Shown here: positions 2,834-36,161 of the stretch, piece after piece
Position numbering within the stretch: the first letter of the stretch is position 1
Layout: the number at the start of each line of letters is the position of its first letter
The notes under the pieces: model-generated
Databases searched by the model: none
What the model saw: only the letters and a program-made list of their open reading frames with translations
What the model was told of the DNA's origin: nothing
Assembly (NCBI GenBank): GCA_020631855.1
Contig: JACKGU010000001.1
Span: 1-37,600, forward strand
DNA: 37,600 bases
Origin: Candidatus Nomurabacteria bacterium
Lineage (GTDB): Bacteria > Patescibacteriota > WWE3 > UBA101185 > UBA10185
Reading direction: 5' to 3'
Translations under genes and position numbers: made by a program

Positions 2834-3532
2834 TTATTCTTCTATAATAGCAGGATTAACGATCGCTGTTTTATAATCTTCTATGTTTGTTCTTATTCTT
2901 TGTCCGTGTATTGTGCTCGGATTGTAAATATCAAAATAAAGCTCTACCAGCTCTTGGGTTGTCATTACCGTAGCCTTTACTCCTATTCTGTTAAATTCTG
3001 AAATCACATGGGCAACTTTTGGGGTCAGTTCTGTTTTTGCTTTGGTTAGAGCTTTATCTACATTCACAGGGGCTCTTTTTGAATGAAATCCGAAAAGCAC
3101 AAAAAACCACTCAAAAGGATTAGTTCCTTTTTTAAGATCAACTATTCCGCCGGTAGGAATAACAACATAAAATTTTTTATCTAAAACATCGTTTTTTTCG
3201 ATAACTTCTTGTACAAACTGCCTATACTGTATTGCTTGAGATTTAAGTAGAGGATCGGAGACTTTTTCCTCGTTTCTCTCCAAACTTTCGAGATACTTTG
3301 TAATATCCAGCCTTTTTGATCTTATTACTATTTGAATCGGGAAGGAGAAGGAGTTTAATAGCATGGAGAAAGCAGAGATCATCGCATCTTGCTCGATTTC
3401 CGATAGAAGGTCGAAGTTAACAGCGGTTGTTTGTAACACAGAGCATACACTTCCGTTTTTTAAAACCACGAAATCGTCTTTTATTGTCTCTATATCTAAA
3501 TGTTCTTGAGTTGTCGCTTTAATGTCTGACAT
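2834..3532 (-). CDS. T4SS-associated soluble protein resembling a stand-alone VirB4 N-terminal domain (no ATPase motifs)
   Basis: 232-aa ORF, ATG 3530-3532. TAA at 2834-2836 lies 1 nt before the virB4 ATG. No TM segment and no P-loop. By eye, DDFVVLKNGSVCSVLQTTAVNFDLLSEIEQDAMISAFSMLLNSFSFPIQIVIRS follows the pattern of VirB4/TrbE N-terminal domains and of residues ~40-120 of the adjacent VirB4. The CDS is solid; the family call is tentative. Confidence 0.4.
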   Translation of the reverse strand: MSDIKATTQEHLDIETIKDDFVVLKNGSVCSVLQTTAVNFDLLSEIEQDAMISAFSMLLNSFSFPIQIVIRSKRLDITKYLESLERNEEKVSDPLLKSQAIQYRQFVQEVIEKNDVLDKKFYVVIPTGGIVDLKKGTNPFEWFFVLFGFHSKRAPVNVDKALTKAKTELTPKVAHVISEFNRIGVKATVMTTQELVELYFDIYNPSTIHGQRIRTNIEDYKTAIVNPAIIEE

Positions 3533-3584: not shown

Positions 3585-5549
3585 TTATCTGCCCTTTATC
3601 AGAATAGGTGGTATTATCTTTCCTGCGACCTCTACTTTAATTATATCAAAGCTGAGGTTAGTTCGTTTAGACTTGTCAGTTTCGATAGTATAAGTACCGT
3701 TTAGCAAAGGCGTGGTTATTGCAAACTCTCCAAGAGGGTTTGTTTTTAGTGCTCTTACGGGTTCTTGGGCGTGGTTTTTAATTATCAACACTATATTCTC
3801 TAATGCTCGGTTATTTTGGTCAACCACTTTGCCACTAATTATGTTAGGTATAGTGTTGGAAATCCCGCTTTCAATAAATTCAGGGGTTTCGCCGTGAATC
3901 ACTTTCTCGGTTCTTTCTCTGTCTTCCTCAATAGCTTTTTTAACAAAAGACTTTTCAGTTAGCTCTGTGTATTTTTCCTTAATCTGTGAGTAATTTTTTT
4001 CTGTTGCTTCTTTTTCTTTTTCCAGCTTTTGTATAGTTGTAATTTTTTCTGCTTTATCGTTGTCTCCTTTTGAGTTTGCAATGTCCTGTTTTAGCCTTTC
4101 TATTTGTATGCTCAGCTCCTTATTTTCTCTCTGTAGTTTAGCTAGAAGATTTTTTATATCTTGCCCTATTTGGATTACGGGTTGAGTATTGTCGACGGGC
4201 ATTCCAAAAGGACTTTGTGTTGTTGTGATTATTTCGTCATCCGGACCGAATTGTGCGCTGTACCCTGTATTCGTGCTGGTTGTATTGATAGTGCTTGCGT
4301 TGTTTGCTTCGTGATTACTCGGGAAAGAGCTTTTTTCTTCGAGCGCGGAATGGTTCATTTGTAAGCTGCCTTGGACATTTGATGTTAGGGGTATCTCTTT
4401 TTCTACAGGTTTCGCTGCTACAATATTTTTATATTTTGCATCTCGCTTTATTTGTTCTAAAAGAGCGTTAAGCTGCTTTGTTTTATTTTGCAGTTCTTCA
4501 TCAATTTCCATTTCTTCTGAGGTCCTTAGGGTTTTTTCGCCTTTTATTGGTAACACTATCTCGCCTTTGCTGGGTACTAGGTTTGTAAAGGCTCTGCCCG
4601 AATGTCTGTCGGGCGTGATTGGCGCGGGTTCAAAATACGAGGTGGTGAGAAACTGTGGCTTTTCAGATGGGTTGTATGCGTTGTCAAACTGAGCTTCAGG
4701 AATAAGATGTTTTGGTTCTGCCGTTGCTGCTTGTGTTGTTTGTGAGGCGCCGGCGCCTGCCGGCGCCTGACCCCCACTTCCCTCAATAGTTTTCGGTGCT
4801 GATCCAAAGCTTAAAGACCCCGCGCCTGGGGCCCCGGCTATGTTTCCGGGAACAGCCGCACTGTATTGGTTACTGTCCAGTCTTTTTTCTTCGGACGGAC
4901 TGTGAGATTTTTGAAAACCAGCGTCATCTATTACTTTAGCGTGAGCTGCTGGTGCTATAGGTGCAGTAGCCGCAGTTTGTATGCCCGGCCCCATTCTTTT
5001 TTGAACATTTCCTCCTGGAGTATAGGGGTTGGCCTTTGAAACAGGAGTTCCGGCAAAAGCTGCTGCTACCTTGTTTATATACACATGTTCTTGAAAATCC
5101 AACGGATCGTTGTTTGGGGCCGAGTCTTGGGCGGTAAGAAATTCCTCCAGTTTTCTCCTGCTTGTAGTAGGGGAAAGCGTTATTAGCTCTTGTCTTACAA
5201 CGTTCAAATTTTCAAAAGTAAACGCTGCCGGAATCTCGGGTGTTTTTTTCCAGATTCTCTGGTTTGGTAAATATATAGACTTAATAAAATTTACAACCCA
5301 CTGATCCAGCCCTCTATCTTCAATAGGTAAAAAAGCCAAACTTAGCCCAAACAGTACTAAAAAAAGTATAATAGGCCATTTAAATATAGAGTTTACAAAA
5401 GCGAATACGCCGTAGGCAATTCCGCCTGACAACGCAAGGTACATGAATTGCCTCATCGTTAGGTCACCAATAATCTTAAATTCCACATCCATTATGTTTT
5501 GTGGAAGCGCGTGTTGCTTGTTTGTTGTTTGCGTGTCGTTTAAAGGCAT
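3585..5549 (-). CDS. PrgI/TcpE-like (VirB3-analogue) two-TM protein fused to a long low-complexity, coiled-coil and beta-sandwich tail
   Basis: 654-aa ORF, ATG 5547-5549. The N-terminus DLTMRQFMYLALSGGIAYGVFAFV...WPIILFLVLFGLSLAFLPIEDRGLDQW is a two-TM hairpin located just upstream of VirB4. It is followed by a P/A/G/S-rich stretch and a K/E coiled coil (LQRENKELSIQIERLKQDI). The C-terminus is a carboxypeptidase-regulatory-like pattern (GKVVDQNNRALENIVLIIKN...GEFAITTPLLNGTYTIETDKS). Confidence 0.5.
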   Translation of the reverse strand: MPLNDTQTTNKQHALPQNIMDVEFKIIGDLTMRQFMYLALSGGIAYGVFAFVNSIFKWPIILFLVLFGLSLAFLPIEDRGLDQWVVNFIKSIYLPNQRIWKKTPEIPAAFTFENLNVVRQELITLSPTTSRRKLEEFLTAQDSAPNNDPLDFQEHVYINKVAAAFAGTPVSKANPYTPGGNVQKRMGPGIQTAATAPIAPAAHAKVIDDAGFQKSHSPSEEKRLDSNQYSAAVPGNIAGAPGAGSLSFGSAPKTIEGSGGQAPAGAGASQTTQAATAEPKHLIPEAQFDNAYNPSEKPQFLTTSYFEPAPITPDRHSGRAFTNLVPSKGEIVLPIKGEKTLRTSEEMEIDEELQNKTKQLNALLEQIKRDAKYKNIVAAKPVEKEIPLTSNVQGSLQMNHSALEEKSSFPSNHEANNASTINTTSTNTGYSAQFGPDDEIITTTQSPFGMPVDNTQPVIQIGQDIKNLLAKLQRENKELSIQIERLKQDIANSKGDNDKAEKITTIQKLEKEKEATEKNYSQIKEKYTELTEKSFVKKAIEEDRERTEKVIHGETPEFIESGISNTIPNIISGKVVDQNNRALENIVLIIKNHAQEPVRALKTNPLGEFAITTPLLNGTYTIETDKSKRTNLSFDIIKVEVAGKIIPPILIKGR

Positions 5550-5707: not shown

Positions 5708-7066
5708 CTACCTCTTCTTATCGTCTCCTGCAACCAATGCCTTTACTTTATCCGGAGCTTTGCGTGCGTAATTATAGCCTACTAGGTATATAATTAGGGT
5801 TAGGGCACCCTTAGTAAAATATGGCATAGGAATAAGGCCCGTGCTGGATGTTCCCATAATAGTTATTGATGCTACCCTAGTTATTGCTATGGTTGCTTGC
5901 CCGGCAAGTATTCCCAGTGCATATCCTGCCATTGTTTTAAACCATCCAACAGTCGCTTTTTCATTTCCAGGAATCGCGCCAAAAACAAAAATAAGAGGGG
6001 CTTTTATAACCTCTATCAACATTTTTATATAGAAAATGAACAGCTTTACTTGCACAATAAGGTATAAGATTACAATCATGATTAATATCGTGAAGAGAAC
6101 AATGAATGCTACCCCTGCGGCTGGGATAAATGCCTGAAATATAAGCATTGCAAGGATAAAGATCTCGAGGCCAAATCCTATGTTGGCAGCAGCCACAACT
6201 CCATTTGCCGTTAAGGTATTTGCGCTTGTTGTTTGCGCTATGTCTCTAATAACCCCAACAACCGAGTATTTGGCAACATAGGCCAGGTTTGCAATTGCTG
6301 CACCTATTGGGTAGCTAAAGTATATTAGAACAATTGCAAGTATTAATCTTGGTAGTGCATATTGAACCGTAACCGCAACTTGTGCGCTAACTTTTTTCCT
6401 ATTTATTATCATAACCCCAACTACTATTGAAACGATGGCGAGTACCCCGAATGCAACGTTTCGTGACATTGCCCAAAACTCGTACACTATATCTAGCCAA
6501 GGCGATGTGTATTGAAGTCCCGTTTGTTGAGCAAATACCGGACTGATCAAAGGTATGCCCTCCGTTTCTCTTTGTATGAAGTATGCCATGTTAACTGGCA
6601 TGGGTTCAGTGTTCGCCTCTTGAAAGGCATTTGCTAATCCAAGGAGGCTTCCTTTGCCTCTAGCATCAAAATCTCCCCCATTGCTTGTGGTTGGTTCAGA
6701 GAAGTTGTTTCCCAAACCTTCGCAGTATGTAGGGTCTTGGGGTTGACAGTCCTCAGCATCCATTTGAAGATCAACCCCTTGAGCTGAGTATTCGCTTAGA
6801 GCGTATCCGCCGCACTGTGTGACCTGGGTAGCGTTTCCGTTAAAAGCTATGCTTGAGGCTCCTGTTAAGCCTGCAGCATACATGCTCCCTACCGTGGGCA
6901 TTCTAATATCTATTGCAGAGCTTTTACCTACGTTTTCAAATGTGTCAAGTTCGGGGTCACAGTTAGCCGCATATATTGACCTTGATGCGACTGTTCCGAA
7001 AAGAACAGTTAAAGTAAGTAAAAAAGAGAGAAGTTTAAAATTTTTTGTGTTTGTAAACTGAGCCAT
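5708..7066 (-). CDS. VirB6/TrbL/ConG-like polytopic membrane protein (putative T4SS channel subunit)
   Basis: ATG at 7064-7066 gives MAQFTNTKNFKLLSFLLTLTVLFGTVASRSIYA, a signal peptide. The ORF-track start at 7087 is a TTG 7 codons upstream. A ~190-aa Cys-containing exported domain is followed by at least 6 hydrophobic helices. The gene sits next to the PrgI-like and VirB4 genes. Confidence 0.5.
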   Translation of the reverse strand: MAQFTNTKNFKLLSFLLTLTVLFGTVASRSIYAANCDPELDTFENVGKSSAIDIRMPTVGSMYAAGLTGASSIAFNGNATQVTQCGGYALSEYSAQGVDLQMDAEDCQPQDPTYCEGLGNNFSEPTTSNGGDFDARGKGSLLGLANAFQEANTEPMPVNMAYFIQRETEGIPLISPVFAQQTGLQYTSPWLDIVYEFWAMSRNVAFGVLAIVSIVVGVMIINRKKVSAQVAVTVQYALPRLILAIVLIYFSYPIGAAIANLAYVAKYSVVGVIRDIAQTTSANTLTANGVVAAANIGFGLEIFILAMLIFQAFIPAAGVAFIVLFTILIMIVILYLIVQVKLFIFYIKMLIEVIKAPLIFVFGAIPGNEKATVGWFKTMAGYALGILAGQATIAITRVASITIMGTSSTGLIPMPYFTKGALTLIIYLVGYNYARKAPDKVKALVAGDDKKR

Positions 7067-7115
7067 AGTGTTAGTAAAATAATACAAGTTTATTTTAAGA
7101 AAAGCAATTTCATTA

Positions 7116-12188: not shown

Positions 12189-12554
12189 TTAGAATGGGGT
12201 GATTCCGCTTATACCGCTGTTTGTACCACTTATTCCTACAACATTCTGTGCGATTATCTTTATTGTGATCGCGCCGACTACTATCAAAAATCCTATAAGT
12301 GCGTTTGTAAGAGCCGTTCTAGCAGAGGCCGCTTTTTTTGTATCCCCTTTTGCTGTGATATGTTCTATACCCGCAATGCCCAAGAAGATAACTGTTAGAG
12401 CAATGCCGACTCCTATAACTAAGTTCATGACAACGCCAAATATAGCCGCCAGAGTACCCGCGGTTGCTATTGGTGATCCTGAAAACGGGTCAACGACAGT
12501 AACAGGAACGCTAGTTTGTGCATGAGCTGTCTTTAACATTTTTTCTACTAACAT
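12189..12554 (-). CDS. TrbC/VirB2-type T4SS pilin paralogue 1 (likely major pilin)
   Basis: 121 aa. A strong SD (GGAGGTG) lies ~7 nt upstream of the ATG, and an in-frame TAA directly precedes the ATG. A short leader MLVEKMLKTAHA is followed by two long hydrophobic helices flanking ITAKGDTKKAASA. Confidence 0.7.
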   Translation of the reverse strand: MLVEKMLKTAHAQTSVPVTVVDPFSGSPIATAGTLAAIFGVVMNLVIGVGIALTVIFLGIAGIEHITAKGDTKKAASARTALTNALIGFLIVVGAITIKIIAQNVVGISGTNSGISGITPF

Positions 12555-12609
12555 TTACTGCACCTCCTTTATAAAAAAACCTGAAAAGTAACATTTTACT
12601 AACTGTAAT

Positions 12610-12618
12610 ATTATATCA
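12610..12618 (-). promoter_or_regulatory. Extended -10 promoter candidate (TGaTATAAT) for the pilin operon
   Basis: The reverse complement of 12610-12618 is TGATATAAT, ~50 nt upstream of the pilin-1 ATG. No good -35 was seen. Confidence 0.3.
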
Positions 12619-12864
12619 GATGAACTGGATTGTTAGTATTGTATTTAGAAATCAACTTAATACTTGCAGGATATGTATTATTAACACTTGTTATATATGG
12701 CTTGTGGTATGGTTTGCTGGAGATCGTTTGTGTTACTATATAAGCAGTAAATATTTTTCATAGTTGCCTTTTGCTAAATTACAAAGTTACAAAAAGCAAA
12801 GCAGCTCTGATGGAGTAGTCTTAGCGCTGGTACAGGGGGCACCCTATACAAGACAAAAATTATC

Positions 12865-13605
12865 ATGTCGTTCTTTTTAGCACTGCTTGTTATATTGGTA
12901 ATACTTATAGTCCCTTTTTTAAAAGTTATACCCGAAGGTTATCACGGCGTAGTTCTTTTTTTGGGGAAATATAACAGAACACTTAACCCCGGCTTAAATT
13001 TTGTACTTTTTCCCCTCGAACAAGTTATAAAGGTCGACATAAGAGAGCAGGTTATGGACATTCCTACTCAGGAGGCTATAACCAAAGATAATGTTTCCTG
13101 CATGGTAGATGGGATAGTACGCTTTAAGGTTTTAAATCCTTCGACAGCTATATTTAAAGTTCAAAACTATCAAAGTCAAATATCGGCCAAAGCTCAGACA
13201 GCCCTAAGGGACGTTATAGGCAGCATTACTTTAGACGAGGTACTTACAAAAAGAGCAGAAATCGCAGAACATATAAAGGGTATTGTTGACACGGCAGCCG
13301 AACAGTGGGGTGTGGATATATCGGCAATTGAGATGCAAAATATTGAGATTCCTGCAGATATGAAAAGAGCTATGGCTCAACAAGCCGAGGCCGAAAGGGA
13401 TAAAAAAGCTAGAATCATTAAAGCTCAGGGAGAGAAAGAAGCCGCAGTGCAGTTGGCTGAAGCCGCGCAGGTTTTATCGGGAGCAAAAGGTGCTTTGGAG
13501 CTTCGAACACTGCAAACTCTAAAGGAAATTTCAGCAGATCCTTCTGAGAAGATAATAATGACTATACCCAATTCGTTTTTCGAGGTGTTAAATCCACGAA
13601 AATAG
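12865..13605 (+). CDS. SPFH/Band-7 (stomatin/prohibitin-like) membrane protein
   Basis: 246 aa with an N-terminal TM. The PHB-domain pattern is VIPEGYHGVVLFLGKY...IPTQEAITKDNV. An Ala/Glu-rich helix follows (AMAQQAEAERDKKARIIKAQGEKEAA). Confidence 0.85.
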   Translation: MSFFLALLVILVILIVPFLKVIPEGYHGVVLFLGKYNRTLNPGLNFVLFPLEQVIKVDIREQVMDIPTQEAITKDNVSCMVDGIVRFKVLNPSTAIFKVQNYQSQISAKAQTALRDVIGSITLDEVLTKRAEIAEHIKGIVDTAAEQWGVDISAIEMQNIEIPADMKRAMAQQAEAERDKKARIIKAQGEKEAAVQLAEAAQVLSGAKGALELRTLQTLKEISADPSEKIIMTIPNSFFEVLNPRK

Positions 13606-13612
13606 TTATTAG

Positions 13613-14269
13613 ATGAATAGAGGTAAGATCCAGATAGCTTTTAATTATACCTTCAACGATTTTGCTAAGGTAATTCGCTATATTCCAAAAAACCCAAACA
13701 TTATTTTGGAAGCTGGAACACCGCTAATAAAGTACGAAGGAATAAAAGTTATATCCAAAATGCGCTCGCTGTGGTCAGGAGAGATCTGTGCTGACATGAA
13801 GATAGCCGATGGCGCTCATGAAGAAGTGCTCATGGCCAAACAAGCCGGTGCAACTAGTGTTACTGTTCTGGGCAATTCATCTGTTGAAACTTTAAAAATA
13901 TTTGTCGATAGCTGTACAAAACTGAATATAACCTCAATTGTTGATATGATTTCTAACGAAAAGCCCCTTAAGACTTTGTGGAAAGCGAATGTGGTTCCCG
14001 AAATGGTTTACATCCATCGTGGGAGAGATGAAGAGAATTCTTTTGGGAAAATCTTGCAGTACAAAGACATCTCAATGTTGAAAGGTAAGTGGGATCTTAA
14101 GGCCGGCGCGGCAGGAGGAATGGATAAGAGAGAGCTACAGTCGGCTATTTTTAACAGCGCTGATGTTGTTGTTGTAAACATCGTCCGGCCGTCGGATAGT
14201 TGGAAAGGTATAGTTTTTGATAGCCAGTTCCGAACCAACCTAGAAGATTTCTTGCGCTTTGTAGCATAG
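13613..14269 (+). CDS. OMP-decarboxylase-suprafamily TIM barrel, 3-hexulose-6-phosphate synthase (HPS)-like
   Basis: 218 aa. By-eye alignment to remembered HPS/KGPDC motifs: IQIAF(N), EAGTPLIKYEG, ICADMKIAD (the D-x-K-x-x-D box), AGATSVTVLG, VDMI, IHRGRDEE, AAGGM. Confidence 0.5.
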   Translation: MNRGKIQIAFNYTFNDFAKVIRYIPKNPNIILEAGTPLIKYEGIKVISKMRSLWSGEICADMKIADGAHEEVLMAKQAGATSVTVLGNSSVETLKIFVDSCTKLNITSIVDMISNEKPLKTLWKANVVPEMVYIHRGRDEENSFGKILQYKDISMLKGKWDLKAGAAGGMDKRELQSAIFNSADVVVVNIVRPSDSWKGIVFDSQFRTNLEDFLRFVA

Positions 14270-14359
14270 CGGTAAAGTATTTTAGATAGGGTAGTCTTAG
14301 TTTGCACAACCTCGCCTAACCTTAAGTAGAAACTAAAGAGCCCCCAGACCTATAAATGC

Positions 14360-14365
14360 TATAAT
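14360..14365 (+). promoter_or_regulatory. Consensus -10 TATAAT 7 nt upstream of the ATG at 14373 (possible leaderless mRNA)
   Basis: The sequence gcTATAATagttgatATG has no SD between the hexamer and the start codon. Confidence 0.3.
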
Positions 14366-14372
14366 AGTTGAT

Positions 14373-16151
14373 ATGCAACGTCCTGCCATTCATGCTCGAA
14401 AGTTATTTTTAATATTGTTGCCTTTTTTACTTCTAACTACCGTTTTGTCTTATAGCGCCTTCGCCGACTCCTGCAAAAACATTGAAGATTTAGATGACAG
14501 AGAGAAGTGTTACGCAAAAGAGTACGAATCAACTGAAAAGAAGCTGCAGGATGTACGAGAGCAGAAAGATAGCGTATCAAAAAAGATTAGCGACTTGTCC
14601 TCTGCGCTGACTGTAAAAAATGAAGAAATTGTTGAATTGCAGAATGAAATTGCTGCGATGAACAGCGTGTTGAATCAGATAAACCAGACTTTAGAAGATA
14701 AAAATCTGCAGATGGCAAAAAAAATCGAGTTGCGTAACGGCATGTTGCGTACTTTCGCTAAAAAAGGCAACCTCTCAACCACTGATTTTGAATTAATTTT
14801 TGGTACCGCGGCTGTTTCTGAAAATCTTACCGGGTTTCAATATGCAACGCTTAATTATATTTTTGAAAAATCCTTGAACTCAGATGCTATAAGGACCATT
14901 AAGGTTCTTCAGACCGAGATTCAAAATTTTGAGCGCGATAAAAAAGAGGCAGAAGATTTGAAGCTTGAGCTTGAGTCAGCGCAATCTAATTTGTTGGTTT
15001 TAAAAAATAGCCTTTCATCAGAGAAAGCAAGCGCCGAGGGACAGTACAGCGAGTTAAGCGATAAAGAAAAATCTTACAGTCAGAAACTGTCGGATATTTC
15101 TGCAAAACAACAGGAAATATTAAATTTAAAGGCGGGAGGAGACAACGGGACAGTAGGAGACTATGATTCTCCAAGCTGGAAGGTGCCGGAACCTCCTTTT
15201 AGCCCCGCCTTTGGTGCGTTTAGCTATGGTGCTTACACCCACTATAAAGGCATGAGTCAGTACGGAGCGAAAGGAAGAGCTGAAGCGGGCCAAGATTATA
15301 AAGATATTATTAAGTTTTATTACAAACAAGACGTAAAAGAGAAGGATGATTTTCCAAGCAAAATCTGTGTTCAAGGCTACGGTGATTTAGATTTTCAATA
15401 CTATTTATACGGCTTGGCCGAAATGCCCAGCGATTGGCCGGAAGATGCCCTAAAAGCCCAGGCAATAGCCGCAAGAACCTATGCTTATAGATATTGGAAA
15501 AGCGGGCAGTGTATTTGTACTACGCAAAGCTGCCAAGTATTTTTAAAAAGTAAGGCTGACAACGTTCCGTCTCGCTGGAAAGAGGCCGTTGATGACACAA
15601 AGAAGAAAATTATTGACGGCGATACTACCGCTATGTACGCATCAACCTCCGGAGGTTACGTTGAACCCGGAGGATGGGACACTTCCGGCAGTTGGCCGGG
15701 AGGGGCCTATGAAAAAAAGGCCAAATCTCCTTGGTTTTACTGGGCCTGGTATTCTCAGAATTATAGATTTGATTCTAGTACATGCGGAAGGTCGCATCCA
15801 TGGTTAACCGAGAAAGAAATGGCCGATATACTAAATTCGTGGGTAGTTTGGGACAAAGGCAGCAACAGCGACAGAGATAGAATATCCCCTGTAACAACAG
15901 GTTGTTGGGGAGGAAACCCTTACTCATTAGATCAAATGGCAAGTAAGGCCGATGACTACGGCACCAAGTATAGCAAGATAAATAGCGTAGATGTTACTGT
16001 TGGAAATAACGGTGTGACAACACAAGTTAAATTTAGTACTGACAAAGGCAACGTCACAATCTCCGGTGATGTTTTTAAAACCGTCTTTAATCTTAGAGCT
16101 CCCGGATATATTTCTTTAAGAAGCAGGCTTTATGACCTACAAAGAGAGTAG
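14373..16151 (+). CDS. Secreted SpoIID/LytB-domain peptidoglycan-remodelling protein with N-terminal coiled coil
   Basis: 592 aa with a signal peptide (...LSYSAFA). About 230 aa form a heptad-rich K/E/L/Q coiled coil. SpoIID hallmarks are EDALKAQAIAARTYAYRYW, YASTSGGY and VFNLRAPGYISLRS. Confidence 0.8.
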   Translation: MQRPAIHARKLFLILLPFLLLTTVLSYSAFADSCKNIEDLDDREKCYAKEYESTEKKLQDVREQKDSVSKKISDLSSALTVKNEEIVELQNEIAAMNSVLNQINQTLEDKNLQMAKKIELRNGMLRTFAKKGNLSTTDFELIFGTAAVSENLTGFQYATLNYIFEKSLNSDAIRTIKVLQTEIQNFERDKKEAEDLKLELESAQSNLLVLKNSLSSEKASAEGQYSELSDKEKSYSQKLSDISAKQQEILNLKAGGDNGTVGDYDSPSWKVPEPPFSPAFGAFSYGAYTHYKGMSQYGAKGRAEAGQDYKDIIKFYYKQDVKEKDDFPSKICVQGYGDLDFQYYLYGLAEMPSDWPEDALKAQAIAARTYAYRYWKSGQCICTTQSCQVFLKSKADNVPSRWKEAVDDTKKKIIDGDTTAMYASTSGGYVEPGGWDTSGSWPGGAYEKKAKSPWFYWAWYSQNYRFDSSTCGRSHPWLTEKEMADILNSWVVWDKGSNSDRDRISPVTTGCWGGNPYSLDQMASKADDYGTKYSKINSVDVTVGNNGVTTQVKFSTDKGNVTISGDVFKTVFNLRAPGYISLRSRLYDLQRE

Positions 16152-16394
16152 CATAACTTGAGAAGAGTTTTTTGAACTATAGTTCAGGCTTAGGTCGACA
16201 GGCGCATATGCGTTATTTTTTTTTGCTGTTAGATTAGTGCCGCCAGTGTTACCAGCTGCTGCACGAATTCTAAAGAAGTCCGCGCACACTTAGCAACGGT
16301 ATAGGGGATCTATTGGTACAAAACTTAGAACCTCACATTTATTCTTTGACGTTCTTTACTGCAGACTGGAAGCCTGCTCGTGTCTTAGCGGTTC

Positions 16395-17630
16395 TTAAAT
16401 TGTTAACCCCAAAAGAGACTGAATTGCTAGCCTGATTATTACTATAAATCCAAGCAGCGCTATAGTTCCAAGAACAGCAGCTACAAAGCCCTCTCTAGCG
16501 TCTTTTACTTTTGCGGGATCTCCTTGGCTGGTCATGGTTTTATATCCATTTATTAGTATCATCGGCAAGCTGAAAAAACCAAGAGCCGCAGGAATCATAA
16601 GTGACATAAGAGATGTCAGCAAAGTTTCAAAGTTTATCAAAGGCCCTGTGTATTCTCTTCTTGGCGGGGCGGGTATGCAGGTAATGTTCCGAACGCATTG
16701 ACCGCTGGTGTTGCAAGTTTCATTTGCTGCGCAGCCACCATAACCGCATGTATTTATGTACGCTGGGTCATATGTACATTCGCCCGAGGGTAAGATACCT
16801 GTCGGTATCCCGCATATATCAGTAAATCCGTTTCCATCTCCATCGACGTCCAAGACGCATCCAGGTCTAGGAGGAACACCTGTGTACCCGCAGTATTCCC
16901 CAGTAGTGCAGGCAACTTTGACTGGTCCGCACAGGTCACGCCCATTGTGGTTTGCAATGAAAGTTGCGTCGCATGCAGGTGCAGTAGATGCAAGGTAACA
17001 TGTTGTTGGAGCGCTGAAAGGCTGACTAAGGTTTATCGAAAACCTTGCCGCCTCAACAACGTTGCTGTCATTGGAAACCCAATTGTAGTTTCCTGCTACT
17101 TCAACGAGGTTTACTTGAACAATCACTTGGCTAGTGGCGGGGTCAGATATTTCTACTCCTGTACCAAAAAGCCGAGTTGAACTTGATGGCTCACAGCCCG
17201 GGCCAGAAATCGCGCCGTCCTCTTGGCATTGGAATACATAACCTGAACTATCCGCTGGCCATTCAATCTCGTTCGATACCCCTATTCTTACACCGTTCTG
17301 ATCGTACACATGCAAGTTAAAACGTACCGTGTCTACATGGACAAAAGAGTAATAGCCTGATGGGTCTGTAGAAGCAGGTATTTTAGGGTTTATTGTTACC
17401 GTGGCGTTTACTATACTATTCAAAGCCATGCTACCGCAGTTGGCAACTTCAGAGGAGAAAGAATCCATTAAAAATTCGTAGTTCGTTGGTTCATGTGTTC
17501 CTTCTGCATGCGCAGTTTTCACAAATGCTCTCGTTAAAACATCGTTGTCGATAGGGATACCCACTGCAGACACTGCCCAGATTACTCCTGCAACAAAGGT
17601 ATAAAAGAATATTATTTTGATTCTGTTCAT
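16395..17630 (-). CDS. Exported beta-rich plus Cys-rich domain fused to a C-terminal T4SS-pilin module (candidate tip/adhesin pilin)
   Basis: 411 aa. An N-terminal signal/anchor is followed by KTAHAE. About 17 Cys residues occur in aa ~210-320. The C-terminal ~85 aa (SLMIPAALGFFSLPMILINGYKTMTSQGDPAKVKDAREGFVAAVLGTIALLGFIVIIRL) have the same two-helix plus GDPxK loop layout as the pilins at 11.3-12.6 kb. Confidence 0.55.
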   Translation of the reverse strand: MNRIKIIFFYTFVAGVIWAVSAVGIPIDNDVLTRAFVKTAHAEGTHEPTNYEFLMDSFSSEVANCGSMALNSIVNATVTINPKIPASTDPSGYYSFVHVDTVRFNLHVYDQNGVRIGVSNEIEWPADSSGYVFQCQEDGAISGPGCEPSSSTRLFGTGVEISDPATSQVIVQVNLVEVAGNYNWVSNDSNVVEAARFSINLSQPFSAPTTCYLASTAPACDATFIANHNGRDLCGPVKVACTTGEYCGYTGVPPRPGCVLDVDGDGNGFTDICGIPTGILPSGECTYDPAYINTCGYGGCAANETCNTSGQCVRNITCIPAPPRREYTGPLINFETLLTSLMSLMIPAALGFFSLPMILINGYKTMTSQGDPAKVKDAREGFVAAVLGTIALLGFIVIIRLAIQSLLGLTI

Positions 17631-17859
17631 TATTGTTATCTTTATAACTGTGGGTACATTACAAGTGTAACATGGGCAGAAAAGGCTTTCAACTTTTATC
17701 TTCTATGTTAGGCCGAATAGGTTTTACACGCAAACTGATCATAATTACAGAATTGTTTCATCTGTTGCTAAGCCATGCTTGGCACTGTAGGAAATATTTT
17801 TTTCTAAAAATTAACCACCTTTTACATGTATTCTAAATGGAATTCTTTTTACATGATGT

Positions 17860-17865
17860 TACAAT
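17860..17865 (+). promoter_or_regulatory. Extended -10-like TGtTACAAT ending 6 nt upstream of the rnhA ATG
   Basis: The sequence atgTGtTACAATaagcctATG has no SD. Confidence 0.25.
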
Positions 17866-17871
17866 AAGCCT

Positions 17872-32822: not shown

Positions 32823-35800
32823 TTGATTGTGCCCAAGTCATTTAAAAACTATAAACGAATAATAACCACCTCAGCTTTTTTTGGCTGTTGTGTTTTTTCT
32901 TTCTTGCTATTTAAGAAGGAAATTCCTAATTCTAGCGCATCTCTGGCCTGTCCTTTAGCTGACAGCGATGACGGAAATGTGGACGGCACTATAACCATTT
33001 CAGGATCGGAGACTTTCTCTGCAGTAGCAGGAGATGGCACTATTGATTGTAGTGGTCTGGCCGTTGTAGTTGAAAATGGCGGGTCTTTAGCGTTGGAGCC
33101 CTACGAAGACGGTGATACAGACTACGAAGACGACGACATCGGAGTTACATTGATGGCCGACAGCTTAACAGTTGAAGCCGGGGGCAGAGTACATTCTGAT
33201 GGTTTGGGTTATGCAGGCGGGGTTTTTGTTTCATATGAGTCCGGCTATGGGCCCGGCGGGGGTTACGGGAACTCTGGTAAAGGCAGCAGTGGTGGCGGAG
33301 GAGCTTATGGCGGCGACGGAGGAGATTCCTCTGGTCTTTATACTCGCCCCGGCGGAAATCAATATGGAAAGCCCGCCGACCCCCTATTGTTAGGTAGTGG
33401 CGGCGGTGTTGGAAGGTCCGGAGGCAACGTGCCTTCAGGAGGGGCGGGCGGAGGAGCTTTTTCCATTGTTCTGTCGGGAGATTTGGTGTTGGAGGGAGAG
33501 ATTTCCGCTGATGGACTTGCCGGTACCCAGACGTCCGATACATTATATGGCTCTGGAGGAGGTTCCGGAGGATCGATCTGGCTTTCTATTGGGGGCCAAC
33601 TTTCAGGCGGAGGAGATATTTCTGCTAACGGTGGTAGCGGGGGCAAAGCGAACGCTGGTAACGGCGGTGGCGGGAGAGTCTTGGTTGAATACGGAACCTC
33701 AGCCTATACAGGCGTTTATGAGGCTTCCCCCGGATTAGTCGGAACTACTGGTGAAAATGGCTCGGTTGTAGTTGTGGACAGCACGTCGGCAACCATGTAC
33801 ATTAGAGATACTCAAAGATGGATTCCTGATTCCGTTAATTCTTTTGAAAACTGGTTTCCTGAAGTTCAAAACATAGAGATATCTGATAATTCTTCTTTAA
33901 AATTGCAAATTAGTAATACTGCCGCAGATTCAGGAAGCTATGGTTGGGAGTTCGACATCCAAAATCTTATAGTTGCAGCAGGTAGTAGTATTTCTGGAGA
34001 AGGGCTAGGTTATCAGGGCGGTATTTTTACAACACATGAAAATGGTTATGGTCCTGGAGGAGGGCAGGGCATTTCAGGCAGCACAAGCTATGGTGCAGGG
34101 GGCGGTCACGGCGGAGCGGGCTCGAGTTCTTCGAGCAGGGTTGGCGGCTCGGCTTATGGAGACAACCAGGAGCCCGTTACTCCGGGAAGTGGCGGCGGAG
34201 TGGGGCGTTATTCAAGTAGCGTGCCTTCAGGAGGCCCCGGGGGCGGCGCTGTAAAGATTACTACTCGCGAGGATGCTACTATTGATGGAGACATAAACTT
34301 CGACGGCGTTATGGGTGAGCTGACTATTATAGTAGGCCGTGCTTCAGGAAGCGGAGCCGGGGGCTCCGTCTGGTTGAATGTGTACGGAACTTTGTCAGGA
34401 TCCGGGAACATCACTGCTCGCGGTGCTGATGCAGTAGACGCAGGTGCAGGGGGCGGAGGTGGCGGCAGAATAGCGATTTATGTTGCTCACGATGATTTTT
34501 CTTCAGGTACTTACGCTTATGGGGGCGGGGTGGTTAGCTATGCTGTGCCCGGAGCCGGAACCTTTTATCAATATGGCCTTCCTTATTTCTCAGGCGTTGC
34601 TCAATATTACGCTGACGGCGTAACTCCAATTGCTACCGCCGCATCATTAAATGAAACTTCGGTCGTTCTTGAAGTTAGCATGAATCATGGTAGTGCTTCA
34701 GAAACATTGACGCCTGAGGTTGAAATTCGTGAAGTTGGTGATGACTTTACTAATACCGCTACCCATACGGGAGACCCTTTTGTTTATGCTGACTCAGTAG
34801 TTGGCGGGCAAGTGGCCGTCACAGGTTTATCAGATTTAGCCTCCTATCATTGGCAGGTACGTTTTTGCGATTCTAACTCAAATTGCACATCATGGCAAAG
34901 TTATGGCGCAAACTTGGAATCAGAAGCGGACTTTACAGTAATATTAAATGCGGAACCAAACATTCCCTCTAATCTAGGCCCTGCCTCTTATGTAGACGGC
35001 AGTTATGGTACAGATTCAACTCCGGCGTTAAGTTTCACGTTGTCCGATCCGGACGTTGTTGATGACCTGCAGTATCAGATTCAAATAGATGATACATCCG
35101 ATTTCAGCTCTGTTCTCGTAGATTATACTTCTGAAGCTCTTTCACAAGGTCCGCAATCTTTTGTTGTGGGCCAGGCCGAGGGAGGGGGCAGTTATACTAT
35201 CGGAAGCTCAGGACAAACTCTCGTTGACGCCGCATATTATTGGAGAGTTAGGGCAATTGACCCAAGCTTAGAGATTTCTCCCTATGCCACGGCCAATTCG
35301 GGAGATATTGCGTACATAATAGACTCGACAGGCCCCGAAATTGTTGGTGCTGTGACCGGAGATGTGTCGAAGAGCCATATAGTGATGTCGTGGACTACTG
35401 ATGAGCTTAGCACCGCTAAAGTGTGGTGGGGCAAAGCAAGCGGAGGCTATACAAATAGTACAATAATTTCAACACTAAGCTTAAACCACCAAGCCGACTT
35501 ATCTAATTTATCTACCGATACAAAATATAATATTATGATTGTGAACTACGATGCTCAAAATAACGCAGGTACTGAGTATTTAACCTCATACACCACTAAT
35601 GAGAGTACGTCTCAAGATAAAGACGATAAGGATAGAAACAACAATGACTCGGAGAATACAGTTTCATCTAATATTTCTGACGACACAGACGTAACTTTTA
35701 CTCGAATTCAATCGTTTGATTACGAAAATAGCTTTAAGAGCGATCCAAATGAATCTGATGATCAGGGCGGCGATAAGGCGTTGGACGAGAGCATGCAGAT

Positions 35801-36161
35801 AGTTGTTGATGAGCCTCTGTATGATCTGGTGGTATATGTAAAAGATAGAAAAGGTAATCTAGTGCCCGATGCCCTAGTTACAATAAAAGAGCTGAATATT
35901 AGTGTAAATGCAGACAATAACGGCAAGGCCGTGTTTCCAAATGTTCCTAAATCTGTCTATACAGTTAGTGCCAAAACTCCTTTAGGGGATGTTATGGGCA
36001 TTGTTGATCGCGCTTCTTTTGGAAGCGAGAGTGAAGTATATTTTGAATTAACTTCTGATAGGGGGTTTTTCTCAAATAGGGTTGTTCAGGCAGGGGCACT
36101 TACCGCACTATTTTTAGTGTTGGTCTTAATTCTTAAAACGGTTCTGACGAAGAAGATATAA
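32823..36161 (+). CDS. Giant Gly-rich (predicted beta-helix) surface protein with duplicated module, FN3-like domains, carboxypeptidase-regulatory-like domain and C-terminal TM
   Basis: 1112 aa with a TTG start (GTG at 32829 is an alternative). An N-terminal signal/anchor is present. Two ~265-aa Gly-rich modules share GLGY.GG.F...GYGPGGG, SGGGVGR, VPSGG.GGGA, GSG.GGS.WL and GGGGR. FN3-like segments follow. Next is YDLVVYVKDRKGNLVPDALVTIKE...VYTVSAKTP. The C-terminal TM is ALTALFLVLVLIL. Confidence 0.6.
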   Translation: MIVPKSFKNYKRIITTSAFFGCCVFSFLLFKKEIPNSSASLACPLADSDDGNVDGTITISGSETFSAVAGDGTIDCSGLAVVVENGGSLALEPYEDGDTDYEDDDIGVTLMADSLTVEAGGRVHSDGLGYAGGVFVSYESGYGPGGGYGNSGKGSSGGGGAYGGDGGDSSGLYTRPGGNQYGKPADPLLLGSGGGVGRSGGNVPSGGAGGGAFSIVLSGDLVLEGEISADGLAGTQTSDTLYGSGGGSGGSIWLSIGGQLSGGGDISANGGSGGKANAGNGGGGRVLVEYGTSAYTGVYEASPGLVGTTGENGSVVVVDSTSATMYIRDTQRWIPDSVNSFENWFPEVQNIEISDNSSLKLQISNTAADSGSYGWEFDIQNLIVAAGSSISGEGLGYQGGIFTTHENGYGPGGGQGISGSTSYGAGGGHGGAGSSSSSRVGGSAYGDNQEPVTPGSGGGVGRYSSSVPSGGPGGGAVKITTREDATIDGDINFDGVMGELTIIVGRASGSGAGGSVWLNVYGTLSGSGNITARGADAVDAGAGGGGGGRIAIYVAHDDFSSGTYAYGGGVVSYAVPGAGTFYQYGLPYFSGVAQYYADGVTPIATAASLNETSVVLEVSMNHGSASETLTPEVEIREVGDDFTNTATHTGDPFVYADSVVGGQVAVTGLSDLASYHWQVRFCDSNSNCTSWQSYGANLESEADFTVILNAEPNIPSNLGPASYVDGSYGTDSTPALSFTLSDPDVVDDLQYQIQIDDTSDFSSVLVDYTSEALSQGPQSFVVGQAEGGGSYTIGSSGQTLVDAAYYWRVRAIDPSLEISPYATANSGDIAYIIDSTGPEIVGAVTGDVSKSHIVMSWTTDELSTAKVWWGKASGGYTNSTIISTLSLNHQADLSNLSTDTKYNIMIVNYDAQNNAGTEYLTSYTTNESTSQDKDDKDRNNNDSENTVSSNISDDTDVTFTRIQSFDYENSFKSDPNESDDQGGDKALDESMQIVVDEPLYDLVVYVKDRKGNLVPDALVTIKELNISVNADNNGKAVFPNVPKSVYTVSAKTPLGDVMGIVDRASFGSESEVYFELTSDRGFFSNRVVQAGALTALFLVLVLILKTVLTKKI

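Follow-up and report, generated by a model that had tools for sequence, protein, structure and literature searches.

RESULTS

A large pilin with an exported ectodomain

We analyzed a 37,600-nucleotide stretch of DNA (the window) from a Candidatus Nomurabacteria bacterium of the patescibacterial lineage WWE3 (contig JACKGU010000001.1, positions 1 to 37,600). Within the window, a 411-codon open reading frame (ORF) with an ATG start (P0001; positions 16395 to 17630, reverse strand) encodes a protein, referred to here as the large pilin, that combines a signal peptide, an ectodomain, a cysteine-rich segment, and a VirB2-like pilin hairpin. We are highly confident that this architecture is real, and the protein is very probably a functional part of the pilin set of the same window's type IV secretion system (T4SS). 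We favor, tentatively, the reading that the large pilin is a pilus-borne subunit for contact with a host cell.

The mature large pilin is expected to have ∼369 residues, ∼290 of which form the ectodomain, compared with roughly 70 to 120 residues for pilins that consist of the hairpin alone. Hydropathy analysis of the 411-residue protein located hydrophobic segments at residues 4 to 28 (signal/anchor), 337 to 361, and 380 to 411. On either strand, the only ORFs that overlap the gene are short (≤80 residues). The protein contains 16 cysteines, 3 of them in residues 43 to 210 (positions 65, 135, and 146) and 13 in residues 211 to 318; the cysteine-rich segment described in the initial annotation is thus present, with the count corrected from about 17 to 16. 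The parts of the gene, all on the reverse strand, are as follows.

17505 to 17630 (−): signal peptide, residues 1 to 42, with a hydrophobic h-region at residues 4 to 28 (hydropathy; predicted helix at residues 2 to 22 in the AlphaFold2 [AF2] model)
17001 to 17504 (−): orphan ectodomain, residues 43 to 210, cysteine poor, with an all-beta prediction of low confidence
16677 to 17000 (−): cysteine-rich, membrane-proximal "stalk," residues 211 to 318, with 13 cysteines
16827 to 16850 (−): DVDGDGNG, residues 261 to 268, a possible calcium-binding loop judged from its motif (regular-expression search)
16395 to 16676 (−): VirB2-like pilin module, residues 319 to 411 plus the stop codon (PF18895, alignment, AF2), comprising the junction Y-T-G-P-L (residues 327 to 331), helix 1 (334 to 366), the loop MTSQGDPAKVKDA (366 to 378), and helix 2 (372 to 407)
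17664 to 17692 (−): promoter-like site of the large pilin gene (TTGAAA, 17 nucleotides, TG-n-TACACT), from a consensus scan in which the number of such sites was not above the shuffled expectation

The C terminus is a diverged VirB2-like module

The last 92 residues of the large pilin align with the three small pilins encoded elsewhere in the window. All four share the loop T-[SA]-x-[GA]-D-[PT]-x-K and an [ST]-G directly before helix 1. The loop MTSQGDPAKVKDA aligned with the small-pilin loops ITAQGDPKG, ITSLADPKK, and ITAKGDTKK, with invariant T, D, A, and G columns. The alignment agrees with the initial annotation, in which the two-helix C terminus and its loop had been likened to those of the small pilins.

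Comparison of the C terminus with a pilin profile, as the initial annotation had suggested, gave a borderline result. Residues 320 to 411 matched the Pfam family T4SS_pilin (PF18895) with an E value of 0.0026 and 18.2 bits, which does not reach the gathering cutoff of 26.6 bits; strong homology was established through close relatives of the protein. Two of the small pilins of the same genome scored 25.0 and 24.4 bits, both also under the cutoff, and the third (pil3) had no match. An exhaustive phmmer search against 1.84 billion cluster representatives yielded 347 matches at an E value of ≤1e-3 (best non-self match, 5e-25), all of which cover only the C-terminal part of the protein, residues ∼194 to 411; the similarity involves the last 110 to 140 residues. 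For 69 of these matches, the final 100 residues were combined with the three small pilins into an alignment (A3) of 72 modules. PF18895 was matched by 69 of the 72 at an E value of ≤0.01 (best, 8.4e-12), and 14 matched the TrbC/VirB2 family PF04956. Among ten full-length homologues, five (P0006, P0011, P0032, P0056, and P0060) scored above the Pfam cutoff, at 28 to 41 bits.

The full-length AF2 model contains a helical hairpin (residues 334 to 366 and 372 to 407) with a predicted local distance difference test (pLDDT) score of 90 to 97. Residues that are near-invariant in the pilins are retained in this hairpin (G362, Y363, S368, G370, P372, A385, and G388), and basic residues (K364, K374, K376, and R379) lie in or near the inter-helix loop. 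Foldseek found no match at an E value of ≤0.001 when the full-length model was compared with the PDB. VIA-align against 48,161 chains returned generic helical hairpins only (Z ≤ 8.7), a level that the tool describes as background for models made of helices, and a profile search of the sequences of solved structures with the 72 pilin modules gave nothing below an E value of 1. The fold searches are uninformative because two-helix hairpins match everything, and no family can be assigned by fold. Because its relatives match PF18895 and PF04956, because it aligns with the small pilins, and because the hairpin is predicted with confidence, we conclude that the C terminus is a diverged but genuine VirB2-like module.

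Fusions of this type are common in the phylum

The best 150 of the 347 matches, each representing a cluster at 50% identity, were sorted by architecture. Fusions with a single C-terminal hairpin accounted for 109 of the 150; these have 201 to 662 residues (median, 373), and most have an N-terminal hydrophobic leader. The rest were 28 small pilins and 13 tandem proteins with multiple hairpins. In most fusions, the junction Y-[TQSR]-G-P-[IL] is kept directly before helix 1. Of 151 genomes taken from across the phylum, 149 contained the pilin module, in many cases in open frames of 200 to 970 residues.

The tandem proteins (P0071, P0085, P0118, P0121, and P0131 among them) carry two to six pilin hairpins and are thus covalently concatenated pilins; P0071 has 552 residues and 13 hydrophobic segments. 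The large pilin of the closest relative (P0003; L026:104-1966, genome G012) has 620 residues, with three ectodomain repeats of ∼130 to 150 residues followed by a cysteine-rich stalk. Its repeats start with C-x-x-G-x-x-[FY]-x-[LI]-x-M and hold strands resembling Y-N-I-x-Y-D, and BLAST found no similarity between its ectodomain and that of the window protein. A short match with 81% identity to residues 42 to 90 of the pilin alignment was also seen on CAWGGD010000003.1 (L040; 84,687 bp), from a metagenome-assembled genome (MAG) labeled Verrucomicrobiae, and could reflect a binning error or transfer outside the Patescibacteria.

The ectodomain is lineage specific and predicted to be disulfide bonded

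A signal-peptidase cut is likely at K-T-A-H-A/E (residues 42/43; the slash marks the cut), as judged from the leader sequence; an alternative site, AVSA/V, lies at residues 22/23. The leader of the G012 homologue ends in NKVHA/EE, and those of other relatives end in xYA/Q. A site of the same kind ends the leaders of the pil1-type small pilins (window positions 12519 to 12554, and the L017 and L018 orthologues), which have 10 to 12 residues, lack a hydrophobic core, and end in K-x-[HY]-A; examples are MLVEKMLKTAHA/Q, MNLLEKVYA/A, and MLSSLITKVYA/Q. In the large pilins, the signal peptide is of the full Sec type.

No homologue of residues 43 to 210 was found: every phmmer match began at residue 194 or later. 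A word-indexed search of 5.8 billion proteins with the N-terminal domain was likewise empty, neither BLAST nor phmmer matched the window ectodomain to any of 132 other fusion ectodomains, and no relative of the N-terminal domain was found in its own genome or by an ESM feature search. Nothing in Pfam or NCBIfam matched the ectodomain significantly; the best hit was CarboxypepD_reg (E value of 0.12, residues 72 to 108). Beta-sandwich domains of the CarboxypepD_reg type occur in two other proteins of the window, a PrgI-like protein of 654 residues (3585 to 5549, reverse strand) and a protein of 1112 residues (32823 to 36161, forward strand), with E values of 2e-6 and 1e-4.

AF2 modeling of residues 43 to 330 alone gave strands almost exclusively, at a mean pLDDT of 42.5, and the full-length model computed with the family alignment had a pLDDT below 50 across most of residues 36 to 287; over the two models, the ectodomain scored 42 to 59. 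The beta-rich region proposed in the initial annotation is therefore seen as predicted strands, at a confidence that supports it weakly. The nearest structural neighbors of the ESM Atlas model (mean pLDDT, 0.47) were binding modules of the jelly-roll type or resembling carbohydrate-binding modules, at a template modeling (TM) score of about 0.5.

The cysteine-rich segment aligns with the cysteine-rich segments of many homologues, and the matches reach back to residue ∼207 to 300. A variant of the putative calcium-site motif, DxDGDGxxxC, was present in the membrane-proximal cysteine-rich part of about 7 of the 132 fusions and is not a one-off. The number of cysteines was even in 100 of 103 homologous mature ectodomains (binomial P = 3.6e-26), as expected if every cysteine sits in a disulfide. 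VKOR (68.9 bits) and a DsbA/MdbA-like protein of the Thioredoxin_4 family (73.9 bits) are both present in the genome, a pair that has been proposed as the oxidant of exported proteins in candidate phyla radiation (CPR) bacteria (10.1101/335083). These results support the prediction that the part upstream of the pilin module is exported and disulfide bonded. With a cysteine content of 5.7%, the window ectodomain is among the 23 of 109 fusions below 6% (fusion median, 11.5%).

The gene is intact and nearly invariant within its population

The initial annotation had made its reading depend on the ORF not being a chimera of assembly, and on this point it is upheld. An identical 411-residue protein with the same neighbors was found on 13 contigs; among their sources are the NCBI MAG GCA_020427845.1, an assembly from ENA, and Logan assemblies made from different runs. 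A single contig of 6766 bp from another study spans the whole gene. Only the lack of a homologue for the first 210 residues would speak for a chimeric assembly or for a spurious ORF; the 13 independent contigs, the spanning contig, and the occurrence of the same architecture in 109 of the 150 best matches rule this out, leaving it a negligible probability.

The 1.6-kb stretch was found in runs of about nine studies of wastewater or activated sludge, dating from 2015 to 2025. In four further runs from four studies, one substitution was seen in 1601 bp (17294 C>T), which changes Gly113 to Ser in the orphan domain. A 3-bp length change occurs at 16216, in the T-run after the terminator-like hairpin of the neighboring SpoIID-like gene, and run X12 has both differences. 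The hypervariability among strains that the initial annotation had anticipated for the cysteine-rich, adhesin-like part was absent across these four metagenomes. Runs with fewer shared 31-mers were fragmented and contained no variants. Evolution at short range is not measurable, as the databases hold no relative of 50 to 100% identity.

Genomic context of the large pilin

The genome (885 kb in 3 contigs, 94% complete) contains exactly four pilin modules, those of the three small pilins and that of the large pilin. The large pilin gene lies 6 to 16 kb from the core genes of a relaxase-less, Gram-positive-type T4SS, and in relatives the pilin operon is flanked by these core genes too. The relevant genes of the window are as follows.

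760 to 2832 (−): VirB4-type ATPase (Pfam, NCBIfam)
2834 to 3532 (−): TrsD-like protein (Pfam, NCBIfam)
3585 to 5549 (−): PrgI/VirB3-like protein of 654 residues (Pfam, NCBIfam)
5708 to 7087 (−): conserved protein of 459 residues
7128 to 10682 (+): membrane protein of 1184 residues
11338 to 12554 (−): operon of small VirB2-like pilins (121, 110, and 158 residues; PF18895 scores, alignment)
14373 to 16151 (+): SpoIID-like gene (PF08486, synteny)

The coordinates bear out the initial annotation: the distance between the large pilin gene and the pilin operon, given there as 4 kb, is 3.8 kb, and the large pilin gene and the SpoIID-like gene are convergent. The arrangement in relatives is different. 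In eight genomes representing eight other genera of the family, the large pilin gene and the SpoIID-like gene are divergent neighbors, the large pilin gene being directly upstream, and in seven of the eight it heads the small-pilin operon, followed on the same strand by the small pilins, a Big_5 gene, and the genes for the 1184-residue and 459-residue proteins. In G012, the order is large pilin (−), SpoIID (+), RNase H (+), nucleotidyltransferase (+), and GroEL (−); in the window, it is small pilins (−), SPFH (+), OMPdecase-like (+), SpoIID (+), large pilin (−), and RNase H (+). Given this gene order in the relatives, we conclude that both the detachment of the large pilin gene from the operon and its convergent orientation toward SpoIID in this genome are derived rearrangements.

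Relative to L026 (G012) and L017 (G003), the rearranged stretch covers positions 12555 to 17870, with the SPFH, OMPdecase-like, and SpoIID genes now lying between the operon and the large pilin. SPFH and OMPdecase genes were not found in the loci of ten relatives that were searched. Two relatives have extra large genes with a pilin module, which encode proteins of 782 residues (L021; G007:C2, ∼287.5 to 289.8 kb) and 451 residues (L023; G002:C7, ∼221 to 222.4 kb); no T4SS or SpoIID genes of the window type lie within ∼10 kb of either.

Across the genomes of the relatives, SpoIID identity was 46 to 58% and pilin-module identity was 35 to 54%. The ectodomains of the relatives are mutually unrelated, save for one pair with 31% identity over 150 residues. 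Sequence comparison thus indicates that ectodomain variability takes the form of wholesale replacement between genera. The head domain is fixed within a globally distributed wastewater population and replaced between genera.

No Shine-Dalgarno sequence precedes the ATG of the large pilin gene in the upstream sequence. The large pilins of relatives also lack a clear one; pil1 and pil3 of the small pilins have an AGGAGG-type sequence.

DISCUSSION

Proposed role and alternatives

In the reading that we favor, the large pilin would be exported by Sec, and signal peptidase would remove the leader, probably after Ala42. The 16 cysteines of the ectodomain would be paired into disulfides by the VKOR/MdbA-type system of the cell. 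The VirB2-like hairpin would sit in the membrane with its short basic loop in the cytoplasm (later in the pilus lumen) and with the ∼290-residue ectodomain projecting outward from the N terminus of the pilin. The T4SS (VirB4, TrsD, PrgI-like, and VirB6-like proteins) would then incorporate the large pilin together with the three small pilins, as a rare subunit that is either distal or distributed over the length of the shaft. In that position, the lineage-specific beta domain on its cysteine-rich stalk could be offered to the host cell for contact, and the large pilin would fill the role of an adhesin of the VirB5 or PrgB type. In the solved T-pilus, the VirB2 chain begins at the outer face, reaches the lumen, and turns back, so that its termini are outside and the loop is in the lumen, where it contacts lipid head groups (10.1101/2022.09.25.509369). 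Because the VirB2 termini face outside in that structure, an N-terminal ectodomain is compatible with incorporation into a filament. A domain of 290 residues on every subunit would be crowded, which suggests a rare or distal subunit. The location at the tip or base of the pilus and the target binding that were suggested in the initial annotation are putative; a tip or host-contact role is plausible.

Three lines of evidence make us favor a pilus-borne host-contact subunit: the lack of a VirB5 or PrgB protein, the position at the head of the operon in relatives, and the missing Shine-Dalgarno sequence. Neither the VirB5 nor the PrgB family was among the Pfam matches at an E value of ≤1, and a phylum-wide survey detected no PrgB-type adhesin in Patescibacteria (PMC12102498). 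Several observations weigh against it. No T4SS pilus has been reported in any Patescibacterium (PMC10633639; PMC12857230). The pilin module itself scores below the PF18895 cutoff, and the gene stands away from the pilin operon in this genome. Low-confidence models allow no binding fold to be assigned to the ectodomain with confidence. The invariance of the gene across metagenomes is not the pattern that diversifying selection within a species would leave in an adhesin. Finally, the missing Shine-Dalgarno sequence, a hint at a minor subunit, is circumstantial as an argument.

A different possibility, unlikely in our estimate though the leading alternative, is that the protein is a surface protein that never leaves the membrane. 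The hairpin would then be a C-terminal anchor or a piece that docks at the base of the T4SS, and the beta domain, borne across the wall by the cysteine-rich stalk, could act there as a surface receptor, an adhesin, or an assembly factor. The topology would be the same as that of a subunit destined for a filament, and Gram-positive-type T4SSs are generally without pili (PMC12102498; PMC10633639). The extra large pilin genes of relatives (782 residues in G007, 451 residues in G002) lie far from T4SS genes, and in the window the gene is preceded by a promoter-like site of its own and located apart from the small pilins, which also fits a membrane protein. However, the hairpin keeps the near-invariant pilin residues, beyond what mere hydrophobicity would demand, and a plain anchor has no need of the conserved Y-x-G-P junction and the loop motif. 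The gene is also found at the head of the small-pilin operon in seven genera and beside SpoIID in eight, which speaks for a pilin subunit.

The conservation of that junction in most fusions could instead mean that the large pilin is a pro-protein, in which a cut at Y-T-G-P-L frees a soluble cysteine-rich protein and leaves an ordinary small pilin. Conjugative propilins (TrbC/TraA) are indeed processed at both ends (10.1101/2022.09.25.509369). We consider this improbable: [ST]-G is also found near the N terminus of mature small pilins, so the motif belongs to the pilin module and is not specific to the fusions, and no dedicated protease gene was identified adjoining the large pilin gene. That the ectodomain is an enzyme, for example one that cuts wall or glycan and that a pilin stalk delivers to the surface of the host, is quite improbable as well. 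The structural neighbors of the ESM model include the N-terminal sugar-binding domains of glycoside hydrolase family 2 (GH2) enzymes, but these neighbors are binding modules, not catalytic ones, the model is of low confidence, and no enzyme family was matched in Pfam or NCBIfam at an E value of ≤0.1 to 1.

A stronger form of the host-contact reading, which we regard as doubtful, would have a VirB2-derived large pilin both start and cap the T4SS pilus in Patescibacteria, which lack VirB5, with an interchangeable ectodomain that sets the host cell of the epibiont. If this is true, the replacement of ectodomains between genera would track host switches.

Comparison with known systems

The closest functional counterparts would be the VirB5-type tip proteins of Gram-negative T4SSs (VirB5, TraC, TrwJ, and CagL), which in the current model are rare subunits that initiate the pilus, cap it, and make contact with the target cell (PMC12857230). 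The likeness extends to the proposed role only, which for the large pilin remains putative. There is no sequence relationship, and the anchoring part of the large pilin is a VirB2 paralogue, whereas that of VirB5 is a separate fold. FimH and PapG of chaperone-usher pili, as well as the tip pilins of sortase-assembled pili, join a pilin-type module to a distal, lineage-variable binding domain. By analogy, their design logic appears similar to that of the large pilin, although the folds, the assembly pathways, and the order of the parts are unrelated. In the Bartonella Trw system and the Anaplasma T4SS, the presence of several divergent pilin copies has been proposed to broaden or change the recognition of host surfaces (PMC12102498; PMC12857230). 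Those VirB2/VirB5 arrays vary within the small pilin, whereas the large pilins exchange a whole added domain.

The VirB2-like pilin arrays already known in Patescibacteria (PF18895; S. epibionticum SEML1_0006-0019 [PMC10633639]; PMC12102498) are the nearest relatives. They share the two-helix hairpin and the loop motif, and they likewise accompany a relaxase-less, Gram-positive-type T4SS (VirB4, TrsD, PrgI, and VirB6-like proteins) with several divergent paralogues per genome. This species, the one genetically tractable Patescibacterium, requires the T4SS and its pilin array for epibiotic growth (PMC10633639). The pilins described in such arrays are small; in the large pilin, ∼290 additional, exported residues separate the leader from the pilin. 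We found no description of ectodomain-bearing pilins in the searchable papers, including PMC10633639, PMC12102498, and a 2025 review of T4SSs. Large, lineage-specific pilins that are predicted to be disulfide bonded are concrete candidates for the missing contact part. To the arrays described so far, the locus adds a synteny with SpoIID and the operon head across WWE3 genera, a head that is replaced between genera yet fixed within a population, and cysteines that occur essentially always in pairs.

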